The position numbers and the translations under genes were made by a program. Below, piece after piece: positions 38,412 through 63,616 of a stretch of DNA of 64,000 nucleotides. Position 1 is the first letter of the stretch; each line of letters opens with the position of its first letter. The notes under the pieces were generated by a model. That model had not been told where the DNA came from. It saw only the letters and a program-made list of their open reading frames with translations, and did no database searches. This DNA is from Candidatus Parcubacteria bacterium (GTDB lineage Bacteria; Patescibacteriota; Minisyncoccia; UBA6257; JAGOQP01): the NCBI GenBank assembly GCA_025999395.1, contig AP024682.1, positions 173,638-237,637 on the forward strand, read 5' to 3'.

Positions 38412-38750
38412 TGGTGGAGATGATGGGAGTTGAACCCATGTCCAAAGTAATTTTTAGTAAACCTCTACGAGCGTATCTCTCTTTAGAGAGAAAATAAAGT
38501 TGCCTCTTTTTTGTCCTTCTGTTTTTGGAGGCACAAAAACAGAAGTAAGTCTTGTTTCTTACACCGAACTTCCCTACAAGACCTCAGGAGTCGATGCCTC
38601 TCGATTTAAGCGAGAGGAAATCCCTGCTTTACGCAAAAGCGTAAGCGGGAGCCAAATTTTTGTTGGCAGTTATTTTTTTTGATAGCTTAACGGGCTATCA
38701 GGCGGCTCGCAGTTTACTAAAAATTTACTTTGTCGAATCCCGGCATCCCC
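38412..38750 (-). ncRNA. ssrA: tmRNA (ssrA), tag peptide ANKNLAPAYAFA
   Basis: 5' GGGGATGCCGGGATTCGACAAAG... (conserved GGAUUCGAC), 3' tRNA-like end ATGGG-TTCAACT-CCCAT-CATCTCC-A-CCA with G3:U70; internal ORF GCC AAC AAA AAT TTG GCT CCC GCT TAC GCT TTT GCG TAA; begins 11 nt after the smpB stop. Confidence 0.85.
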
Positions 38751-52952: not shown

Positions 52953-53026
52953 CGCGGCCGACCGGACTTGAACCGGCAACCCCCGCCGTGACAGGGCGGT
53001 GCTCTGACCAATTGAGCTACGACCGC
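52953..53026 (-). tRNA. tRNA-Asp (GTC)
   Basis: GCGGTCG-TA-GCTC-AATTGGTCA-GAGC-A-CCGCC-CTGTCAC-GGCGG-GGGTT-GCCGG-TTCAAGT-CCGGT-CGGCCGC-G; 74 nt, no encoded CCA. Confidence 0.85.
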
Positions 53027-53248: not shown

Positions 53249-53320
53249 TTGCGGGGGAGGGATTTGCACCCTCGATCTCCTGGTTATGAGCCAGGCGAGA
53301 TACTACTTCTCCACCCCGCT
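53249..53320 (-). tRNA. tRNA-Met (CAT), initiator-like (unpaired A1:A72, A11)
   Basis: AGCGGGG-TG-GAGA-AGTAGTA-TCTC-G-CCTGG-CTCATAA-CCAGG-AGATC-GAGGG-TGCAAAT-CCCTC-CCCCGCA-A; aligns closely to bacterial tRNA-fMet. Confidence 0.8.
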
Positions 53321-54492: not shown

Positions 54493-54566
54493 GGCAGGGT
54501 AGCTCAGTTGGTTAGAGCGGGCGTTTCATAAGCGTCAGGTCGTGGGTTCGAATCCCACCCCTGCTA
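54493..54566 (+). tRNA. tRNA with CAT anticodon (elongator Met or Ile2-lysidine; not distinguishable by eye)
   Basis: GGCAGGG-TA-GCTC-AGTTGGTTA-GAGC-G-GGCGT-TTCATAA-GCGTC-AGGTC-GTGGG-TTCGAAT-CCCAC-CCCTGCT-A. Confidence 0.75.
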
Positions 54567-55545: not shown

Positions 55546-55860
55546 GTGAAAGAAAATATGAAGGAAAAAGAAGTAAAAATAACAAGGAGTTACGAGCATG
55601 CAGATAAAGGAGAATTAGAATGGAAGGAATCTGAGGCAAGAAGAATAAGGGAAAGAATCATAAATTTAAGAAGGGATCAAATCGGAGCTTTGTCGTATTT
55701 GATTGGCGTAGAGTTTCCAAGAGACGAACTTGATCAGATTGTGTTGGAAATAAAAGAAAATGGCCAAAATTCTGTTAATATAGACGCCATTGTCTATGAA
55801 GCGGAATCAAAAGAAAAATTACTTTGGTGGCTTGATTATTTTGAGCGGCGCAACAAGTGA
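55546..55860 (+). CDS. hypothetical 104-aa protein, copy 1 of duplicated module (identical to copy 2)
   Basis: MKEKEVKITRSYEHADKGELEWKESEARRIRERIINLRRDQIGALSYLIGVEFPRDELDQIVLEIKENGQNSVNIDAIVYEAESKEKLLWWLDYFERRNK; no recognisable domain. Confidence 0.5.
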   Translation: MKENMKEKEVKITRSYEHADKGELEWKESEARRIRERIINLRRDQIGALSYLIGVEFPRDELDQIVLEIKENGQNSVNIDAIVYEAESKEKLLWWLDYFERRNK

Positions 55861-55990
55861 TTTTTTTATTGGTTTACGCCTTCTTTTTTATATTTATACT
55901 TAAACAAATACAGTATTGACTTAAAAATTATTTCTTATAATAATAATTATTGAAGCCGAGAGATTGGCTCTCGGCATAGCACATTAACAA
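55558..55990 (+). repeat. 433-bp direct repeat copy 1 (gene + promoter/5'UTR), 1 mismatch vs copy 2 at 58796..59228
   Basis: nucleotide identity from the ATG through ...ctctcggca[t/c]agcacattaacaa; both copies followed after about 22 divergent nt by shared CCCCAGAAAGGAGGTGAGA RBS block. Confidence 0.9.
55916..55944 (+). promoter_or_regulatory. promoter-like TTGACT ... TATAAT/AATAAT plus 8-bp perfect hairpin (gccgagag-attgg-ctctcggc) in the 5'UTR of peptide gene A; same in copy 2
   Basis: TTGACT 55916-55921, TATAAT 55936-55941 (14-nt spacer) or AATAAT with 17-nt spacer. Confidence 0.35.
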
Positions 55991-56034
55991 AGTTTAGACC
56001 TGGGTGAGATATCCCCAGAAAGGAGGTGAGAAGA

Positions 56035-56187
56035 ATGGCTCGCAGAAAAACATCTAGAATTCTCCGTGCTATTCGTCGAGAGGTGAAGAAGGAGAAAAAG
56101 CTTCATTTCAAGATTCGAATTACACCTGGTTGCAGCGAACTGAATTGCAGTACTTACTGCTCTGATCATGAGGATGCTGATCACTAA
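56035..56187 (+). CDS. 50-aa Cys-rich peptide A (putative RiPP precursor): basic leader + C-terminal core ITPGCSELNCSTYCSDHEDADH
   Basis: ATG 56035 nine nt after GGAGGTGA; MARRKTSRILRAIRREVKKEKKLHFKIRITPGCSELNCSTYCSDHEDADH; stop TAA 56185; below ORF-track size cutoff; directly upstream of rSAM/SPASM gene. Confidence 0.55.
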   Translation: MARRKTSRILRAIRREVKKEKKLHFKIRITPGCSELNCSTYCSDHEDADH

Positions 56188-56203
56188 CGAGAGTGGTTCT
56201 CGA

Positions 56204-56242
56204 GGGGGCGTAGTTGTCTTTTTTTAAAACAACTGCGCCCCC
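56204..56242 (+). promoter_or_regulatory. 14-bp stem-loop (GGGGGCGTAGTTGT / ACAACTGCGCCCCC) between peptide A and the radical SAM gene; no T-run
   Basis: one G.U pair, 10-11-nt loop; typical position of the processing/attenuator hairpin that sets precursor:enzyme stoichiometry in RiPP operons. Confidence 0.5.
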
Positions 56243-56276
56243 ACCGTATTTGTGCGAAGATGTAAGGAGGTGTAGG

Positions 56277-57359
56277 ATGAGAAAAAAGATGACAGTTATG
56301 ATATTACCGGTGGGATTAAGTTGTAACATGGCCTGTAAGTATTGTTATCACGATGGCAGGCCGCGTGTGAACGAGAAGCAAAGCAGAATGTCAGTTGATT
56401 TATTAAGAAAGTTGATTAAAGACAGCGCAGAATTAGCCAGTGATATTGATTTTGTTTGGCATGGAGGAGAACCGCTTCTTGCTGGAATGGAACACTTTAA
56501 GACCGCCATTGATATTCAAAGGAAGACTTGTTTTTCGGGGCGAGTCAGAAACATCATTCAAACCAATGGGGTTCTTTTGAATAAATCTTGGTGTCGATTT
56601 CTTTCGCTGAATCATTTCATAATAAGTACAAGTCTTGATGGTCCTGCAGAAATCAATGATGCAAATCGTCTTTTATTAGGAGGTGGAAAAACCTATCATC
56701 GTGTTGCAAGAGCGGTTCGATTATGGAAGCAAACCGGTAATCAAATGGGAGCTGTTGCTCTAGTAACCAGAACAAATGTAAGGTATCCTGCAGAAACGTA
56801 CAGAGGCTTGAAAAGAGTAGGTTTTAAGAGTTGTGCTTTTCACGTCTGTTCTCAAAATGATGATCAATCTGTTGATCTTGTACCCTCTGCTGAAGAAGCG
56901 GCTTATTTTCTTAAGTCGGTTTTTGATTTGTGGTTCGAGGAGGATGATCCCACGTTTTTAATTCGCAACTTTAGGAATGTTTTGAGAGTGTTGTGTGGGG
57001 GAGTAACAATTGATTGTGCCTCTCGTGTTGATGGTTGTTGGGGATTTATAGCCGTTACTGCTAACGGAGATGTTTATCCTTGTCATCGATTTGTCAACAG
57101 AACCAATTTTCGATTAGGAAATATATTAGAAGAAAGCCTCTCGGCTCTCTATAAGAAAGGATATTCACTTTACAGAGCGATGTGTTCTCTACCCGAAGAG
57201 TGTGAGCGGTGTGAATGGATAAATGTTTGCGGTGGGGGATGTGCATACGAACGTATCGTGGTTAATGGTTCTTTTCAAAGTATTCACCCAGCTTGTGAGG
57301 TAAAAAAAGAACTTTTTGCTCACATAAAAATCAAAACAAACGAGCTCATAAAGAAGTAA
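56277..57359 (+). CDS. radical SAM enzyme with C-terminal SPASM domain (anSME / peptide-maturase family)
   Basis: ATG 56277 with RBS AAGGAGG (track ORF extends upstream to 56214); CNMACKYCYHDG (CxxxCxxC), HGGEPLL, C-terminal CHRFVN...CERCEWINVCGGGCAYE auxiliary-cluster motif. Confidence 0.8.
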   Translation: MRKKMTVMILPVGLSCNMACKYCYHDGRPRVNEKQSRMSVDLLRKLIKDSAELASDIDFVWHGGEPLLAGMEHFKTAIDIQRKTCFSGRVRNIIQTNGVLLNKSWCRFLSLNHFIISTSLDGPAEINDANRLLLGGGKTYHRVARAVRLWKQTGNQMGAVALVTRTNVRYPAETYRGLKRVGFKSCAFHVCSQNDDQSVDLVPSAEEAAYFLKSVFDLWFEEDDPTFLIRNFRNVLRVLCGGVTIDCASRVDGCWGFIAVTANGDVYPCHRFVNRTNFRLGNILEESLSALYKKGYSLYRAMCSLPEECERCEWINVCGGGCAYERIVVNGSFQSIHPACEVKKELFAHIKIKTNELIKK

Positions 57360-58017
57360 CGAGCCGTTTCCGCACGGAGATGGCTCTTTTTTTTACCACA
57401 ATCCGAGCTATGGCGTGCTTATGTGGTTCTGGGTAACCCTGATGCCCTCTATCTTTTATTATTTCTTCTCTATAAAAAATTTTTTCGAAGTTTTCTTTAT
57501 CGAAGTGCTTAATTAACTCTTTAGGCTTGAGAAAATACCATTTATTTCCCTTTTTATCCCGAAAGGTCCTTTCGCTAGTTTTTATAAACTGTTTTGATCT
57601 ACTCATCTTTTTAAACATTTCGTCTTTAGTAGTGAAAGAAGAAATTATTATCAGTCCGTTTTCTTTTACCGCTGTTTTCATTTTTTTTATGATCGAGTCA
57701 AATTCTTTTTTTGAAAGAAAGAAGAGAGAGTTCGTTGCAATAATAGCAGAATAGTAGTTTTTGCGGAAAGAGAAGTCGCGGATATCTTTATGCTTAGCTT
57801 TGATGGATATATTTTGAGATTTGGCCAATCTCTTTATTTTTTCTATCTGGTTATTGTTTTTGTCAACCGCTGTTACTAAAAATCCTTTACTTGCCAGAAA
57901 CAAAGAGTTATTTCCTCTTCCACAACCCAAGTCTAACACTCTGCCTTTTGGTATGTACTTAACAAATTTACTTATTAGCGGAGAGGGTTGGTATTTGTGT
58001 TTATTATCCCGCTTCAT
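57346..58017 (-). CDS. class I SAM-dependent methyltransferase (TehB-like)
   Basis: VLDLGCGRGNNSLFLASKGFLVTAVD motif I; convergent with rSAM gene (14-nt overlap). Confidence 0.7.
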   Translation of the reverse strand: MKRDNKHKYQPSPLISKFVKYIPKGRVLDLGCGRGNNSLFLASKGFLVTAVDKNNNQIEKIKRLAKSQNISIKAKHKDIRDFSFRKNYYSAIIATNSLFFLSKKEFDSIIKKMKTAVKENGLIIISSFTTKDEMFKKMSRSKQFIKTSERTFRDKKGNKWYFLKPKELIKHFDKENFEKIFYREEIIKDRGHQGYPEPHKHAIARIVVKKRAISVRKRLVTSL

Positions 58018-58149
58018 AATCTAAGTTTTTTGTTTAATTTAGAAAAGATGGGTCTGGAGCAAACGATACTTCAAGTTTAAATTTGTATTTATTATAGTAT
58101 AGTATTAAAAAAGTTAAAAAATATCTCGTTTTTTAGCGTATTCATAAAA

Positions 58150-58668
58150 ATGACTCAAACAGAAGTAACTCAAGAAATAAAAGACATTGTCTCAGAATTT
58201 AAAACAAATGGCTTGCTGAGAATTTTTGAGATTCTAGAGTGGATTCATAAGAATTTAAAAGTAAGCCAGGACAGGGAGTATAAAAGAAAATACTTCAGAT
58301 CACGCACCTCTGATGAAATAATAAAGAGCAAAATGTTAACCGGTTGCACCGATTACGCATTGGTTTTTTTGTCTCTTATCAGAGCTAGCGGATTTGAGGC
58401 TAAATATGTGGAAGCGATTGAGACGGTGTGGTTGGAACGCGGTTGCGATGAGATTTTGGGGCATGTTTTTGTTGAGGTTTTACTCGACAATAAGTGGCTT
58501 ATCGTCGATCCTCAGGGGGCCGCAATAAAAGCGTGGTACGGAAGACGCTATGTAATATACGCTAAGGGAAATGATTCTTGGGATTTGGGAATAAAAAATT
58601 TTGATGACCTAAAAAATAAATTTATTGAATACAGAGAAAAATATTTCAATAACAGCAGAAACCCTTAA
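58150..58668 (+). CDS. transglutaminase-like cysteine-protease superfamily protein
   Basis: core LTGCTDYALVFLSLIRASGFEAKYV...GHVFVEVLLDNKWLIVDPQ (Cys-His-Asp arrangement). Confidence 0.5.
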   Translation: MTQTEVTQEIKDIVSEFKTNGLLRIFEILEWIHKNLKVSQDREYKRKYFRSRTSDEIIKSKMLTGCTDYALVFLSLIRASGFEAKYVEAIETVWLERGCDEILGHVFVEVLLDNKWLIVDPQGAAIKAWYGRRYVIYAKGNDSWDLGIKNFDDLKNKFIEYREKYFNNSRNP

Positions 58669-58795
58669 GCGATGAGCACAGGCTTCTGGTTTTCAGCATC
58701 TCCCCAGAGAGCAACAACAAAAATAGAGCCACACAGACTTGATCATGTCTCTAAAGTGTTCAACCTTAATAAAGCGAATAAAATTTTCAATTCTT

Positions 58796-59098
58796 ATGAA
58801 GGAAAAAGAAGTAAAAATAACAAGGAGTTACGAGCATGCAGATAAAGGAGAATTAGAATGGAAGGAATCTGAGGCAAGAAGAATAAGGGAAAGAATCATA
58901 AATTTAAGAAGGGATCAAATCGGAGCTTTGTCGTATTTGATTGGCGTAGAGTTTCCAAGAGACGAACTTGATCAGATTGTGTTGGAAATAAAAGAAAATG
59001 GCCAAAATTCTGTTAATATAGACGCCATTGTCTATGAAGCGGAATCAAAAGAAAAATTACTTTGGTGGCTTGATTATTTTGAGCGGCGCAACAAGTGA
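58796..59098 (+). CDS. hypothetical 104-aa protein, copy 2 (identical protein to 55546 gene)
   Basis: track ORF 58739.. has spurious upstream extension; identity begins at ATG 58796. Confidence 0.5.
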   Translation: MKEKEVKITRSYEHADKGELEWKESEARRIRERIINLRRDQIGALSYLIGVEFPRDELDQIVLEIKENGQNSVNIDAIVYEAESKEKLLWWLDYFERRNK

Positions 59099-59228
59099 TT
59101 TTTTTATTGGTTTACGCCTTCTTTTTTATATTTATACTTAAACAAATACAGTATTGACTTAAAAATTATTTCTTATAATAATAATTATTGAAGCCGAGAG
59201 ATTGGCTCTCGGCACAGCACATTAACAA
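58796..59228 (+). repeat. 433-bp direct repeat copy 2
   Basis: see copy 1; single t/c difference. Confidence 0.9.
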
Positions 59229-59275
59229 GTTGTGTGAAGCGGGTGAGGCTTCCCCAGAAAGGAGGTGAGATGATT

Positions 59276-59404
59276 ATGAAAATTCCCAAGAAATTTAGTT
59301 GGAGAATTGCTGTTGAACCGAGAAAATCAGTTCCGTGCTCCTCCGTCTTTCAAACTCAATGCAGTTGTGGCGGCAGCAGTTGCTGCGGCAAGTGTGGCAA
59401 GTGA
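59276..59404 (+). CDS. 42-aa Cys-rich peptide B (putative second RiPP precursor), 7 Cys in C-terminal 22 residues
   Basis: MKIPKKFSWRIAVEPRKSVPCSSVFQTQCSCGGSSCCGKCGK; ATG 59276 ten nt after GGAGG (alternative ATG 59270); stop TGA 59402; below track cutoff. Confidence 0.5.
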   Translation: MKIPKKFSWRIAVEPRKSVPCSSVFQTQCSCGGSSCCGKCGK

Positions 59405-59426
59405 TCGAGCGACGTTTTAAGTTCTC

Positions 59427-59465
59427 GGGGTATTATGGAAATAGTCATAATACCCCATTTTTTTA
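59427..59465 (+). terminator. rho-independent terminator after peptide B (ggggtattatg-gaaatagt-cataatacccc + ATTTTTTT)
   Basis: 11-bp perfect stem followed by T-run. Confidence 0.75.
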
Positions 59466-59474
59466 CAGTTTATT

Positions 59475-60281
59475 TTATGATTCTATTATTTTGTCAGAGC
59501 TGATTTGAATAATTTTTTTCCAAGAAAGCTTCGGGTGTTTATTTCTGAATTTCTTCATAAAATAGTATCCAATTGAGTATCCTGTCCACTGCTTATATTT
59601 TTTATTTCCGTAAAATATTTTCTTATATAATCCAATACCATTTTTGTTCAAGTATGACTTTAGTGTTTCAAATTGCCTAATAGTTTCCTCTTCTGTTAAA
59701 GCCAGGGTCCAAGGAGAGCGACTACCTTTAACTATCTCCTCTCTAAAAACTTCTGCCATTCCCTCCATTGCCATATATGTTCTGAGGTTATACGATTTTT
59801 CTTTATGGTATCTGTAGAATACTAAATGATTCCACTCATGTGCGATGGTTTCTGTTAAGGATTGTTTACTATAATTATTTGGGTTTATAAATATGTGCAT
59901 AGTGTAATAAGTTGCAAAAGCTGTTACTCCTTGAAAAAGAGAGAGTTTTTTTGTATTAGGAAACCACGGATATATAAAGATAAATATGGGTGGATCTGGG
60001 TGTGGTAAAAATTGATGGCATTTTTTTAGTGTCTTGTGGATGTTTTTTTTGATAAATGATTTTTGTTTTATTGAAAGTGGTTGATACTGAATAAAATTAC
60101 TTCTACTCACATATGATTCTAAATCTTTTTGAAATTTCTTTTTATTTGAGTAGCCAACATATTTAATATTCCCCGACTCTTCCATTTCGTTTATAATCAA
60201 CCCAACAAGCTTTTGTTCGCTTCTAAGCCGATGTATCTTTTTAGGAAAGCAGAAGTTGATTTTTGCTAAGCTTAGATCCAT
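59475..60281 (-). CDS. putative Zn-metallopeptidase-like protein (HExxH ... E motif)
   Basis: ETIAHEWNHLVFYRY (HExxH) and downstream MAMEGMAEVF; no signal peptide; convergent on peptide B. Confidence 0.45.
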   Translation of the reverse strand: MDLSLAKINFCFPKKIHRLRSEQKLVGLIINEMEESGNIKYVGYSNKKKFQKDLESYVSRSNFIQYQPLSIKQKSFIKKNIHKTLKKCHQFLPHPDPPIFIFIYPWFPNTKKLSLFQGVTAFATYYTMHIFINPNNYSKQSLTETIAHEWNHLVFYRYHKEKSYNLRTYMAMEGMAEVFREEIVKGSRSPWTLALTEEETIRQFETLKSYLNKNGIGLYKKIFYGNKKYKQWTGYSIGYYFMKKFRNKHPKLSWKKIIQISSDKIIES

Positions 60282-60391: not shown

Positions 60392-60658
60392 TTACGCAAA
60401 AGGATGCGGGAATTTAGTGATGTTTGCGTATGAAAGGCTAACTCCTCCAAACTCGTAAGCTATTGTGTATAGCCTCTCTACTCCTCCTGGTTCTTGTCGG
60501 TAGCCAAATGTCATTGGTACTATTCCAGTGACAATGGATCGGATGATGTGTAGGTTGCCATTCTCGCTGTATTTGTCCGAGAGGAATCGAGGGAGTAGTC
60601 TTTCGATTATACTATTGACTTTTTTTAATGTGATTGGTATAATTTGGGCATCGCACAT
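60392..60658 (-). CDS. hypothetical 88-aa protein
   Basis: ORF only; no motif. Confidence 0.25.
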   Translation of the reverse strand: MCDAQIIPITLKKVNSIIERLLPRFLSDKYSENGNLHIIRSIVTGIVPMTFGYRQEPGGVERLYTIAYEFGGVSLSYANITKFPHPFA

Positions 60659-60791
60659 TGAAAATTTTTATTCGCTTCCGATACTACTGAATTGTTGGTC
60701 TTACGGGGTTTTTGAATCTAAGTTTTTCTTGGGTTTAAAAACCCCGTAAGACCTGAACCTTTTAAAGGCAGGCAGGGAAAAGGAGGCAGCC

Positions 60792-61952
60792 ATGAACCGC
60801 AAATGTTTTGGCGTGTTTATTGTTATGGCGGTTCTTGCCGCCATAACAAATCAAGCGGAGCCGGCGGCATCTTCACCTTCTGAAAGTGTTTCGAGCATAA
60901 TAACGCTTGAAGCGAACAGCATGTCTCGTGCTGGCTACGGTGCGGTGGAAGCTAACTACTGGATGGACCAACTCGGATTTACTCGAGATCCGGCCGTTAT
61001 CCAAGATGCCATGGATAGATACTACATGTTTGCTCCAGAAGGAATGCCGAGGCGTTGGGGTGATGGTTGGCTTAGCAAATTCGTTGCTAGTTTGCTAGCG
61101 ATTAGGGCGTGGGATATTCGCGACAAGCTGACAGAACCTCAAAAGTCCCAGCTCAATGAAATCCTTACAGATGCGATTCGGGAGGAAACATTTCGACTGG
61201 ATATGACTTGTGGTATCGACCCTTGGAATTCCTGCTCCGAAGACTTCGTTTCTTACTTAGCCCTACTTTCTCGGGTAAAGAACCTTTATCCTACTGTTGC
61301 AGAAAAAGCTGGAATCGGTTATGTGAGTAGTTTGGAGCGAAAATACTTAGAACTCACCTTTTCTACAGATAAAGGTTACTACTCGCTGGTTCGCGAACAA
61401 ACTCAAGATGGTATGCGGGTGTTGATGCACAACCATGGAGAGCAATCAGCGGTTTACACGGGCCTGCTTTTAATCTATTTAAACCACACTCTGCGAGCTT
61501 ACTCTTTAGCAAACAATCCTCTGCCCGACTATTTTTGCCAGGACTGGTTGATGGCCAACATCCGGGACATGTTTGAGTGGCTTCAATCGGTTTCGACTTC
61601 TGATGGGCTCTCCTTTTTAAACAGTTGTCTAAACGCTGAAGGCAATTTAGTCTCCTGCTCTGATATGAAGGTAGCTAATGCTGTTCCTAGAGTCGTACCT
61701 GCTGGTCGCCTGATGGTGAATTTAGTAACGAGCGGCGTTTTCAAGACGGAGGAGATCTTTTCTCTCCACGAATACCATTACCGCTTCTTTGATATAACTT
61801 ACAACGGCGGCAACATTTCAAACAATGGTCGACGCGCTGATTACAATTTGGATAATCAGGAGTTCGAGGTTCTGTGGGAAAACCCCTGCCACCTCTCTTC
61901 TCATCATTCGCTGAGACAACCACGCAGACACCTTCGCTCTGTTGATAAATGA
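60792..61952 (+). CDS. secreted protein of unknown function, paralog A (GC-rich copy)
   Basis: signal peptide MNRKCFGVFIVMAVLAAITNQA; shares blocks AVEANYW, GWLSKFVAS, FRLD.TCGIDPWNSCSEDFVS.LAL..RVKN.YP, NHGEQSAVY..LLLIYLNH with 62156 gene; GC3-rich codons unlike neighbours. Confidence 0.5.
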   Translation: MNRKCFGVFIVMAVLAAITNQAEPAASSPSESVSSIITLEANSMSRAGYGAVEANYWMDQLGFTRDPAVIQDAMDRYYMFAPEGMPRRWGDGWLSKFVASLLAIRAWDIRDKLTEPQKSQLNEILTDAIREETFRLDMTCGIDPWNSCSEDFVSYLALLSRVKNLYPTVAEKAGIGYVSSLERKYLELTFSTDKGYYSLVREQTQDGMRVLMHNHGEQSAVYTGLLLIYLNHTLRAYSLANNPLPDYFCQDWLMANIRDMFEWLQSVSTSDGLSFLNSCLNAEGNLVSCSDMKVANAVPRVVPAGRLMVNLVTSGVFKTEEIFSLHEYHYRFFDITYNGGNISNNGRRADYNLDNQEFEVLWENPCHLSSHHSLRQPRRHLRSVDK

Positions 61953-62155: not shown

Positions 62156-63616
62156 ATGGGGGAAAAATTTGATAATCGTAATCATTCATCTGAAAATGTT
62201 TCTCAGGAAACAGATGAAAGGTCTCGGAAGAGAGAGGGAGGAGCAAAAAAATACCTAAAAAAGGTAGCTGCTCTGATTTTAGGAGCGGCAGCAAGTTTTT
62301 CTTCTGGTGGAGAGTTGGCGAGCCGGTCACTTTTTGAAACTTTTGAGGAAGAAGAAAAAACCGCGGTAGCGCAGGCATCAGAAATTCAAGATTCGTTAGA
62401 AAATAATTCCCTTTCTTTTCTTACGCCAGAGGAAATAAAGGAAATTAATTTCTTAATAAAGGAAGCTATTAAAAAAGAAGTAGAAGCCTCTACTAAAAAA
62501 GAAATAAAAGCTTCCACCTTGGAGACCGATCCTTTAGGAAATAATTGGGAAAGATCTTTGGAGGGGGCGGTTGAGGCTAATTATTGGAGTAATGAATTAG
62601 GATTGACAGAAGAAGATTTAAAAAAATTTGAAAACAATCCTGAAGAATTTGGAAGGAATTACGCAAAAACAATTCAGCGCGCTCTTGATAGTTACTATCT
62701 TATTGCTTCACCAGGTGCTCCTTACAAATGGGGAAATGGCTGGCTTTCTAAATTTGTGGCCAGCAATTTAGCAATCAATGGTTATAGATTTAGAGATTAT
62801 CTTTCTAGCGAACAAAAAGAACAATTAAATACAGTTTTGGCAGATGCGGTTAAACTTTCTACTTTTCGATTGGATACCACTTGTGGGATTGATCCTTGGA
62901 ATTCTTGTTCAGAAGATTTTGTTTCCTTTCTAGCTTTAATTGCTCGAGTAAAAAACTTTTATCCGGAGGTTGTTTCACGAGTCGAGAAAGAATTGGGGGA
63001 AGATTATTTTATTAATGTAGAAAAAAAATTTCTTGAGCTTACTTTTACGGACGAAAATGGATTCTATTCGTTAGTGAGAGAAGAAACAGGGTTACAAGAC
63101 GGAGTTTCTTATGTATTGGCTCGAAATCATGGTGAGCAATCAGCAGTTTATAGTGCACTTCTACTTATCTACTTAAATCATGCCTTGGCATCATATCCGC
63201 TTAGTGGCAATAAAATCCCTGGTTTTTATCGAGATAGTAAGATTATTGAAAACATTAAGTCTTTATTTTCCTGGCTTCAGGAAGTGAGTTCTCCTGATGG
63301 AAATTCATTTTTGGGGGCTTGTCAAACTTCTGGAAAAGAAATTGTCGCTTGTAATGATTCTAAAGTAGCTAATGCTATTCCTAAAGTGTTACCAGCTGGA
63401 AGATTGATAAAAAATCTGATAGTTGCTGGAGTTTTGCCGAAAGAAGTTTTTAAAGAAAACAAGTATCATTATCTTGATTTTGATTCTTCTTATGAGGGGG
63501 GGAATATAAAAAACAAGGGTCGGCAAGAGGATTATAATTTAGATAATTTAATGTTCGAGCGAGGGAGGTTGGTATTTATGCTCCCTCCAATAAGAAGAGT
63601 TTTAAGGGGTCGTTGA
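62156..63616 (+). CDS. secreted protein of unknown function, paralog B (AT-rich copy with extra N-terminal acidic/Lys-rich region)
   Basis: homologous to 60792 gene over about 330 aa. Confidence 0.5.
   Translation: MGEKFDNRNHSSENVSQETDERSRKREGGAKKYLKKVAALILGAAASFSSGGELASRSLFETFEEEEKTAVAQASEIQDSLENNSLSFLTPEEIKEINFLIKEAIKKEVEASTKKEIKASTLETDPLGNNWERSLEGAVEANYWSNELGLTEEDLKKFENNPEEFGRNYAKTIQRALDSYYLIASPGAPYKWGNGWLSKFVASNLAINGYRFRDYLSSEQKEQLNTVLADAVKLSTFRLDTTCGIDPWNSCSEDFVSFLALIARVKNFYPEVVSRVEKELGEDYFINVEKKFLELTFTDENGFYSLVREETGLQDGVSYVLARNHGEQSAVYSALLLIYLNHALASYPLSGNKIPGFYRDSKIIENIKSLFSWLQEVSSPDGNSFLGACQTSGKEIVACNDSKVANAIPKVLPAGRLIKNLIVAGVLPKEVFKENKYHYLDFDSSYEGGNIKNKGRQEDYNLDNLMFERGRLVFMLPPIRRVLRGR

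Follow-up and report, generated by a model that had tools for sequence, protein, structure and literature searches.

A Cys-rich peptide gene in a Parcubacteria genome probably encodes a stranded azole-type precursor and not a radical-SAM substrate

A small gene for a Cys-rich peptide, here called peptide B, lies 3 kb from a gene for a radical-SAM/SPASM maturase in a 64,000-nucleotide stretch of a Candidatus Parcubacteria contig of ~569 kb (the window, to which all coordinates refer unless a contig handle such as L001 is given). That maturase has its own adjacent precursor, peptide A, and both peptides stand behind the same expression signals. Which enzyme, if any, is peptide B made for? With moderate confidence, we read B as a RiPP precursor of the azole type that has lost its cyclodehydratase at this locus and is still expressible through a shared ORF100-leader module; it is probably a stranded precursor and not a substrate of the radical-SAM enzyme.

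The peptide B gene and its shared leader module

The features of the window on which the argument draws are as follows.

55558..56037, + strand: copy A of the module of ORF100, promoter and leader (repeat, covariance model)
56035-56187, + strand: peptide A, 50 aa, in a separate RiPP cassette (56035..57359)
56277-57359, + strand: radical-SAM/SPASM maturase of peptide A (Pfam Radical_SAM and SPASM)
58796..59098, + strand: ORF100 copy B, 100 aa, directly 5' of the B promoter (GenBank KatS3mg098_204)
59154..59182, + strand: sigma-70-like promoter (TTGACT, 17-nt spacer, AATAAT; consensus scan, 10/12 positions)
59188..59276, + strand: structured 5' leader RNA (hairpin 1 at 59193-59213; helix at 59248-59266, GCUUCC:GGAGGU, with the Shine-Dalgarno sequence)
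59276..59404, + strand: peptide B coding sequence, 42 aa (MKIPKKFSWRIAVEPRKSVPCSSVFQTQCSCGGSSCCGKCGK; ORF list and homologue profile)
59427..59464, + strand: intrinsic terminator (12-pair stem, 6-nt loop, T-run ATTTTTTT)
59475..60281, - strand: DUF2268 predicted Zn metalloprotease, convergent with B (HEWNH at residue 148; Pfam PF10026, E 1e-30)
60392..60658, - strand: 3' remnant of a SagB-YcaO fusion gene, 88 codons, corresponding to about residues 659-725 of the 725-aa L020 protein

Peptide B is a real 42-codon ORF located where the preliminary description had placed it, and its product is the 42-aa peptide given there, with six Cys and not the seven counted at the time. Two ATGs are available, at 59270 and 59276, and the stop TGA occupies 59402-59404. 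Starting at 59270 would add MI to the peptide; the start is likely at 59276, because homologues begin MK[TI]PKKFSW, and a Shine-Dalgarno GGAGG (59261-59265) is positioned 10 nt 5' of this second ATG. The 11-bp-stem terminator reported after B was recovered as a stem at 59427-59456 with 11 Watson-Crick pairs and one G-U pair (-21.3 kcal/mol, z = -4.9). It acts on the + strand only, is 100% conserved in all sister strains, and presents the form of an intrinsic terminator, namely a GC-rich stem-loop with a U-run behind it on the transcribed strand. Peptide B is unannotated in GenBank, where the flanking genes for ORF100 and DUF2268 carry the consecutive tags KatS3mg098_204 and KatS3mg098_205, and the exact peptide was absent from a 15-billion-protein collection with each of three start choices.

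The promoter, 5' hairpin and RBS that B had been said to share with peptide A are common to both, within a shared block larger than first described. A 476-nt direct repeat (55558-~56033 and 58796-~59272) is 100% identical from the ORF100 ATG through the TTGACT-17-AATAAT promoter to the first hairpin (GCCGAGAG..CTCTCGGC), and identity becomes patchy beyond this hairpin as far as the block CCCCAGAAAGGAGGTGAGA. Accordingly, ORF100 copy B is identical to copy A (55558-55860), and the same promoter site stands 5' of peptide A at 55916-55944. The hairpin motif and the block CCCCAGAAAGGAGGTGAGA occur at only these two sites in 64 kb, with chance expectations of ~0.02 and 0.00, respectively. The 3' half of the leader reads AACAAGTTGTG in B, like L001, and AACAAAGTTT in A, like L009; since these halves resemble different relatives, the two copies appear to be old paralogues with homogenised 5' parts, not products of one recent duplication. 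The peptides themselves are unrelated, as had been stated: BLASTP found no match, a Smith-Waterman shuffle gave p = 0.05, and peptide A scored 1.5 bits against the B-family profile, leaving homology of A and B unsupported.

Covariation supports the shared leader as a conserved RNA. A covariance model (R1), built from six copies, scored the B leader at 99.5 bits and detected nine instances (50-102 bits) in six contigs. Across the nine, pairing holds in 97.6% of cells and compensatory change is seen at 6 pairs, with covariation in both helices. These counts lean towards structure because the alignment was fitted to the model; slid controls of the alignment all drop to 40-55% paired. Helix 1 tolerates G-U pairs, while helix 2 joins UUCC to the Shine-Dalgarno GGAGG. 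The leader had no Rfam match at the gathering threshold and nothing relevant at E<=10, and the model found no instance in L011-L016, which carry more distant ORF100 loci, or beside other B homologues.

ORF100 has homologues of 38-68% identity in other CPR contigs and is predicted to be all-helical (AlphaFold pLDDT 84). It returned no Pfam, NCBIfam or PADLOC match and no PDB fold match below E = 2. A function as a PqqD-like recognition element was rejected on the all-helical fold together with this absence of a family or fold match. The ORF100-leader module ties together otherwise unrelated RiPP cassettes: depending on the contig, the cargo behind the leader is peptide A, peptide B, a 'MGFWK' peptide, the small peptide of L019/L020, an MvdD-type ATP-grasp or the YcaO fusion.

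Leader and ORF100 loci were located at 55558-56037 and 58796-59276 of the window, L001 5288-6489, L008 72-728, L009 403-1057, L019 3256-3344 (-), and L020 138-661 and 4208-4297. ORF100 adjoins the leader in most of them, usually immediately on its 5' side; L008 and L009 have a small peptide gene between the two, and in L019 the leader is 3' of an unrelated gene. Another small peptide type (…GP[KR]TDKGGGRERNVGHPKGEEHSRV…) follows the leader at L019 3258-3112 (-) and L020 4295-4444, and in L019 its gene is succeeded by one for an M16-type peptidase. In many CPR genomes a conserved and highly charged 57-65-aa peptide (MGFWK/MGSWK...RIGRHVDV...K[MI]KIS...PPSKK) is encoded directly 5' of ORF100, as at L001 5762-5959, L008 157-345, L009 488-667, L011 4724-4921, L012 4722-4901, L013 985-1158 and L015 4708-4896; the window holds no copy. 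The conserved motif AGACCYGGGYAYGTCTMTAAAC occurs just 5' of ORF100 in L001, L002, L008 and L009. The idea that A or B might be diverged 'MGFWK' members, plausible by eye, was rejected on the absence of any BLASTP match and Smith-Waterman shuffle p values of 0.5-0.96; the MGFWK peptide scored -1.7 bits against the B-family profile.

Peptide B belongs to a Parcubacteria family of putative precursors with conserved synteny

Peptide B is a member of a small Parcubacteria precursor-peptide family. Six homologues on other Parcubacteria contigs yield the consensus PKKFSWK..FQEQCS[CS]G..QC.GQCGG, and the family is defined here as PKKFSWK..FQ[ET]QCS[CS]G..C..G[QK]C. A profile of the six, built without B, scored peptide B at 60.2 bits (E 3e-17), and composition-matched controls reached <=9.9 bits in 2,000 full shuffles and <=20.0 bits in 2,000 half-shuffles. 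An exhaustive phmmer search of 1.84 billion representatives gave P0007 and P0009-P0011 at E 3e-7 to 2e-4, its fifth match, P0008, being discounted as a 308-aa repetitive protein; P0006 was found by a two-sequence profile. A metagenome scan for the leader pattern led to L020, where a 45-aa ORF (MENPSKAPRKFLWKIKTKEKKRTPADTITFQEQCSSGNCCGKCGG) with its own Shine-Dalgarno sequence and terminator is convergent with DUF2268. No match came from a word-indexed protein search with peptide B alone, from a JGI metagenome scan with a 56-aa translation of B, or from a scan of viral contigs. The family sample comprises seven lineages, 3 with the full enzyme, and most contexts are short metagenomic contigs.

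The alignment invariants are K, P, K, F, W, Q..QC, C, G and C. From the N-terminus they make up a leader, K-x-P-[KR]-K-F-x-W-[KR]-[IVL], and then a hinge, Q-x-Q-C. The core beyond it varies in length, keeps three invariant Cys and has Cys or Ser at the position after QCS. Residues 2-11 and FQxQ are conserved and are followed by a variable Gly/Cys/Ser core, which is the two-part layout of TOMM/LAP precursors. The evidence thus supports peptide B as a genuine small gene resembling a RiPP precursor, its N-terminal leader being conserved and its Cys/Ser/Gly core variable. Within the leader, FSWRI of peptide B conforms to FXXXB, the motif by which cyclodehydratase complexes recognise the leaders of SagA and McbA and to which SagC and McbB bind (PMC2676033).

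Synteny extends the family likeness to the neighbouring genes. Every homologue on a long enough contig is convergent with DUF2268 or, in L038, with YcaO.

L020: B homologue convergent with DUF2268; SagB-YcaO fusion full length, 725 aa
L031: B homologue convergent with DUF2268; fusion full length, 729 aa
L038: B homologue convergent with YcaO directly; fusion residues 393-725, to the contig end
Window: peptide B convergent with DUF2268; fusion residues ~659-725 only
L032-34: B homologue convergent with DUF2268; fusion residues 595-725 only
L035: B homologue convergent with DUF2268; fusion residues 559-724 only
L036: B homologue convergent with a DUF2268 fragment (contig ends); fusion outside the visible contig
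L037: B homologue convergent with DUF2268 (contig ends); fusion outside the visible contig

The HE[WYI]NH motif was present in every DUF2268 copy checked. The L020 and L031 fusion proteins match Pfam Nitroreductase and YcaO. They hit TIGR03604 SagD at E 4e-45 and 3e-47 (154-161 bits, below the curated cut-off of 219) and TIGR03605 SagB at E 5e-16 and 1e-17 (59-64 bits, below the cut-off of 78), and the L020 fusion has in addition a weak PqqD match (E 0.026). In both L020 and L031 the SagB-like FMN dehydrogenase makes up the N-terminal half of the fusion, and it is absent from the window; YcaO is found at the orthologous loci of L020, L031 and L038 and as a stub only in the window. Judged by gene content, the intact relatives have the layout of a predicted thiazole/oxazole (TOMM/LAP) system. 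The earlier statement that B is not adjacent to a maturase therefore stands for a complete enzyme only, for a DUF2268 gene is convergent with B and the YcaO remnant is ~1 kb away.

A pathway can be proposed for the intact relatives. One fusion protein would provide the SagB-like FMN dehydrogenase and the YcaO cyclodehydratase, possibly with an N-terminal peptide-recognition domain. It would bind the conserved leader PKKFSWK[IV], which contains F-x-x-x-[IVL], and turn Cys and Ser of the Gly-rich core (CSCGGSSCCGKCGK in B) into azolines and then azoles, after which the convergent DUF2268 HExxH protease would cut off the leader, perhaps close to the conserved FQ[ET]Q. Searches of solved structures and of the literature on the function of DUF2268 gave nothing useful; as a candidate leader peptidase, it would gain its first plausible role. 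New elements would then be an unannotated azole-type precursor family, a SagB-YcaO enzyme compacted into one protein, and a DUF2268 protease, all in CPR bacteria, whose genomes are tiny and to which natural-product pathways are seldom attributed.

Enzyme truncation and strain-level decay

The YcaO stub of the window aligns by tblastn at 60% identity over 67 aa (E 4e-22), and its codon 5 is TAA in L003, L004 and L005. The 64 kb of the window yielded no further YcaO fragment. The enzyme gene has been deleted down to an untranslatable 3' stub. Because only this stub is left, we infer that B is a stranded precursor, currently without a modifying enzyme. The gene itself remains fully equipped for expression, with its promoter, a leader able to sequester the Shine-Dalgarno sequence, an RBS and a terminator. 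The DUF2268 closest to that of the window (50% identity) is from the YcaO-positive L031; since DUF2268 identities do not group the truncated lineages, their truncations are likely to be independent. The locus also shows a putative RiPP pathway in the course of being dismantled, its enzyme cut in three ungrouped lineages and its precursor lost in some strains only.

The fusion stubs differ in length (window 60392-60658 (-), L032 7169-7576, L035 7067-7564), with the 3' end kept and the downstream DUF2268 intact. In the divergent intergenic region upstream of the window stub, a 26-nt inverted repeat (60697-60753) is 88% complementary with a 5-nt spacer, and L004 carries two copies of it. Divergent from the stub are genes for paralogous proteins of 386 and 486 aa (60792-61952 and 62156-63616), segments of which share ~78% DNA identity; this region varies by strain, being ~660 nt longer in L004, and the 386-aa protein had no Pfam or NCBIfam match.

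Variation within the species (~99% identity) resolves into four structural haplotypes.

Haplotype 1: the window arrangement
Haplotype 2 (L004, L007): the sequence upstream of copy A runs into ORF100, leader B and B, with no peptide A-radical-SAM-methyltransferase-transglutaminase cassette between; the L004 contig ends 358 nt 5' of ORF100 and shows the junction only
Haplotype 3 (L005, L006): 149 nt absent (B promoter, leader, RBS and start), with an in-frame TAG before KFSW
Haplotype 4 (L003): the same 149-nt deletion as in L005/L006, with cassette rearrangements

The promoter and start of B are deleted in three of the six sister assemblies (L003, L005 and L006). This 149-nt deletion is derived, since no type but the leader-bearing one has the family-conserved IPKKF, and on the same ground leaderless variants were rejected as the ancestral state, in which B would be a chance ORF that had captured a promoter. 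Promoterless B bodies carry missense changes only (Cys21 to His or Arg, Ser to Phe, Ser to Ile, Ala to Thr), at 3 per ~116 nt. All 3 differences between L006 and the window in 889 nt fall inside B, and DUF2268 is nearly unchanged between strains. B is 100% identical in the three assemblies that keep the leader and hence is not visibly decaying in the window strain. These alignments indicate that B is dispensable within the species, and the missense pattern would reflect relaxed constraint.

The cassette of peptide A, radical-SAM, methyltransferase and transglutaminase genes (55893-59130) is flanked by the 476-nt repeat, and its presence varies among strains that are ~99% identical: it forms the separate contig L010, and L003 keeps the methyltransferase and not the radical-SAM gene. 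Between the peptide A stop and the radical-SAM start, a strong hairpin without a T-run (56196-56240, GGGGGCG..CGCCCCC) may act as an attenuator that sets how much precursor is made relative to enzyme. Genes for a tmRNA and three tRNAs were also located, at 38412-38750 (-), 52953-53026 (-), 53249-53320 (-) and 54493-54566 (+), one tRNA gene lying just 5' of the variable region.

Alternative readings and comparison with known systems

A less likely but serious alternative is that B and DUF2268 work as a functional pair without YcaO, which would be optional or ancestral, and that B, perhaps cleaved by the metalloprotease, acts unmodified, for instance as a Cys-rich metal-binding or disulfide-bonded peptide. 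Both genes are intact in three lineages with truncated YcaO (window, L032-34 and L035), which could mean a YcaO-independent role or a second YcaO elsewhere. Every family member keeps three invariant Cys, DUF2268 differs little from strain to strain, and QCSCG is found in all truncated lineages and QCSSG in all YcaO-positive ones, although this split amounts to only 3 versus 3 lineages. Against a fixed function of this kind, B appears dispensable, with promoter and start lost in 3/6 assemblies; Cys/Ser interchange and variable Gly-rich spacers, as in its family, typically mark heterocyclisation cores rather than fixed metal sites; and it matched no metal-binding family.

The same pairing enters a wider proposal of similarly low probability: an undescribed modular RiPP regulon in Parcubacteria, in which ORF100 and a Shine-Dalgarno-sequestering leader repeatedly precede varied cargo and drive the recombination that shuffles cassettes between strains, and B and DUF2268 work together without YcaO. 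If this is true, the cargo of the regulon would include the YcaO fusion, ATP-grasp, radical-SAM precursors and B-type peptides, and the pairing would explain why B and DUF2268 survive beyond the cyclodehydratase in several lineages.

We regard it as unlikely that the radical-SAM/SPASM enzyme at 56277 takes B as a second substrate, which would be cross-linked at Cys and co-regulated by way of the promoter and leader that it shares with A. B and A are both Cys-rich and stand behind the same promoter, leader and RBS, many SPASM maturases are permissive, and B might have been re-used after YcaO loss. The hypothesis is weak because B has no SCIFF/CcpA match, the enzyme scores low as such a maturase and has its own precursor, relatives of B are unlinked to radical-SAM genes, and B occurs without the cassette. 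The resemblance to SCIFF/CcpA-type substrates suggested in the preliminary description was not borne out, since no NCBIfam or Pfam peptide family, SCIFF (TIGR03973) and CcpA-type families among them, matched B even at E<=10. The possibility raised there of a housekeeping protein, such as a ribosomal zinc-ribbon protein, finds no footing either, B matching no family and being lost in 3/6 sister assemblies. In NCBIfam the window enzyme matches anSME (262 bits) and DynA (229 bits) best, without reaching the cut-off of either, and it falls far short of the SCIFF maturase TIGR03974 ScfB (105.5 bits, cut-off 425) and of TIGR04068 CcpM (77.4 bits, cut-off 500). A and B have no similarity in their leader peptides. 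The neighbours of B homologues elsewhere are DUF2268 and SagB-YcaO, not radical-SAM genes; the sole nearby radical-SAM/SPASM gene, at L035 336-1841 and 4 kb from the B homologue, is followed by its own 53-aa Cys/Asp-rich ORF (…DSGCDCFDCDYNCEECDNCDCDALNYL). In L007, and in the part of the locus that the L004 contig covers, intact leader and B come directly after the first ORF100 copy, with no radical-SAM cassette between. A Cys-rich peptide and the nearest radical-SAM enzyme should thus not be paired on composition alone.

It is quite improbable that B is still matured by a complete YcaO elsewhere in the genome, the system being split and not broken. B does keep all family-invariant residues and full expression signals, and the view is of 64 kb of the genome only; yet the window holds no further YcaO fragment, the local gene is clearly a deletion remnant, and B is lost in sister strains. 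That B is no gene at all, but an ORF by chance or a non-coding 3'/5' sequence, can practically be dismissed: it is short, of low complexity, unannotated and absent from the 15-billion-protein collection under any start, but six homologues share its start context, Shine-Dalgarno sequence, conserved residues, frame and synteny.

As an azole-type precursor, B is comparable to the TOMM/LAP precursors microcin B17 McbA and streptolysin S SagA, which are likewise short, with F-x-x-x-[IVL] in the leader and a C-terminal core rich in Gly, Cys and Ser. Its intact relatives parallel SagB/SagC/SagD-type loci in having a SagD-like YcaO, a SagB-like dehydrogenase and a protease. B differs in that it has no sequence similarity to any described precursor family and that the enzyme of its family is a single ~725-aa fusion with no separate SagC/E1-like protein. 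The proteases of the comparator systems are CaaX-type or TldD/E, whereas that beside B is DUF2268; the host is a CPR bacterium, and in the window the enzyme is missing.

SCIFF peptides (six Cys in forty-five, TIGR03973; maturase ScfB, TIGR03974) are a Clostridia-type family. B resembles them in its size (~42-45 residues), in six Cys mainly in the C-terminal half and in the SPASM radical-SAM gene 3 kb away, but it has no profile match at E<=10, and its homologues are unlinked to radical-SAM genes. RiPP loci have been predicted in CPR genomes as graspetide clusters (Makarova et al. 2022, PMC8939145), and in L001 the ORF100-leader module precedes an MvdD-type ATP-grasp gene; the B system differs from these clusters in enzyme class and precursors, and B has no ATP-grasp neighbour.

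The leader, for its part, recalls Shine-Dalgarno-sequestering leaders such as RNA thermometers and translational riboswitch platforms, with a helix UUCC(C):GGAGG(U), a possible alternative upstream pairing and covariation. It is set apart from them by the lack of an Rfam family and of an evident ligand-binding aptamer, and the position of most instances directly 3' of an ORF100 gene suggests a protein partner.
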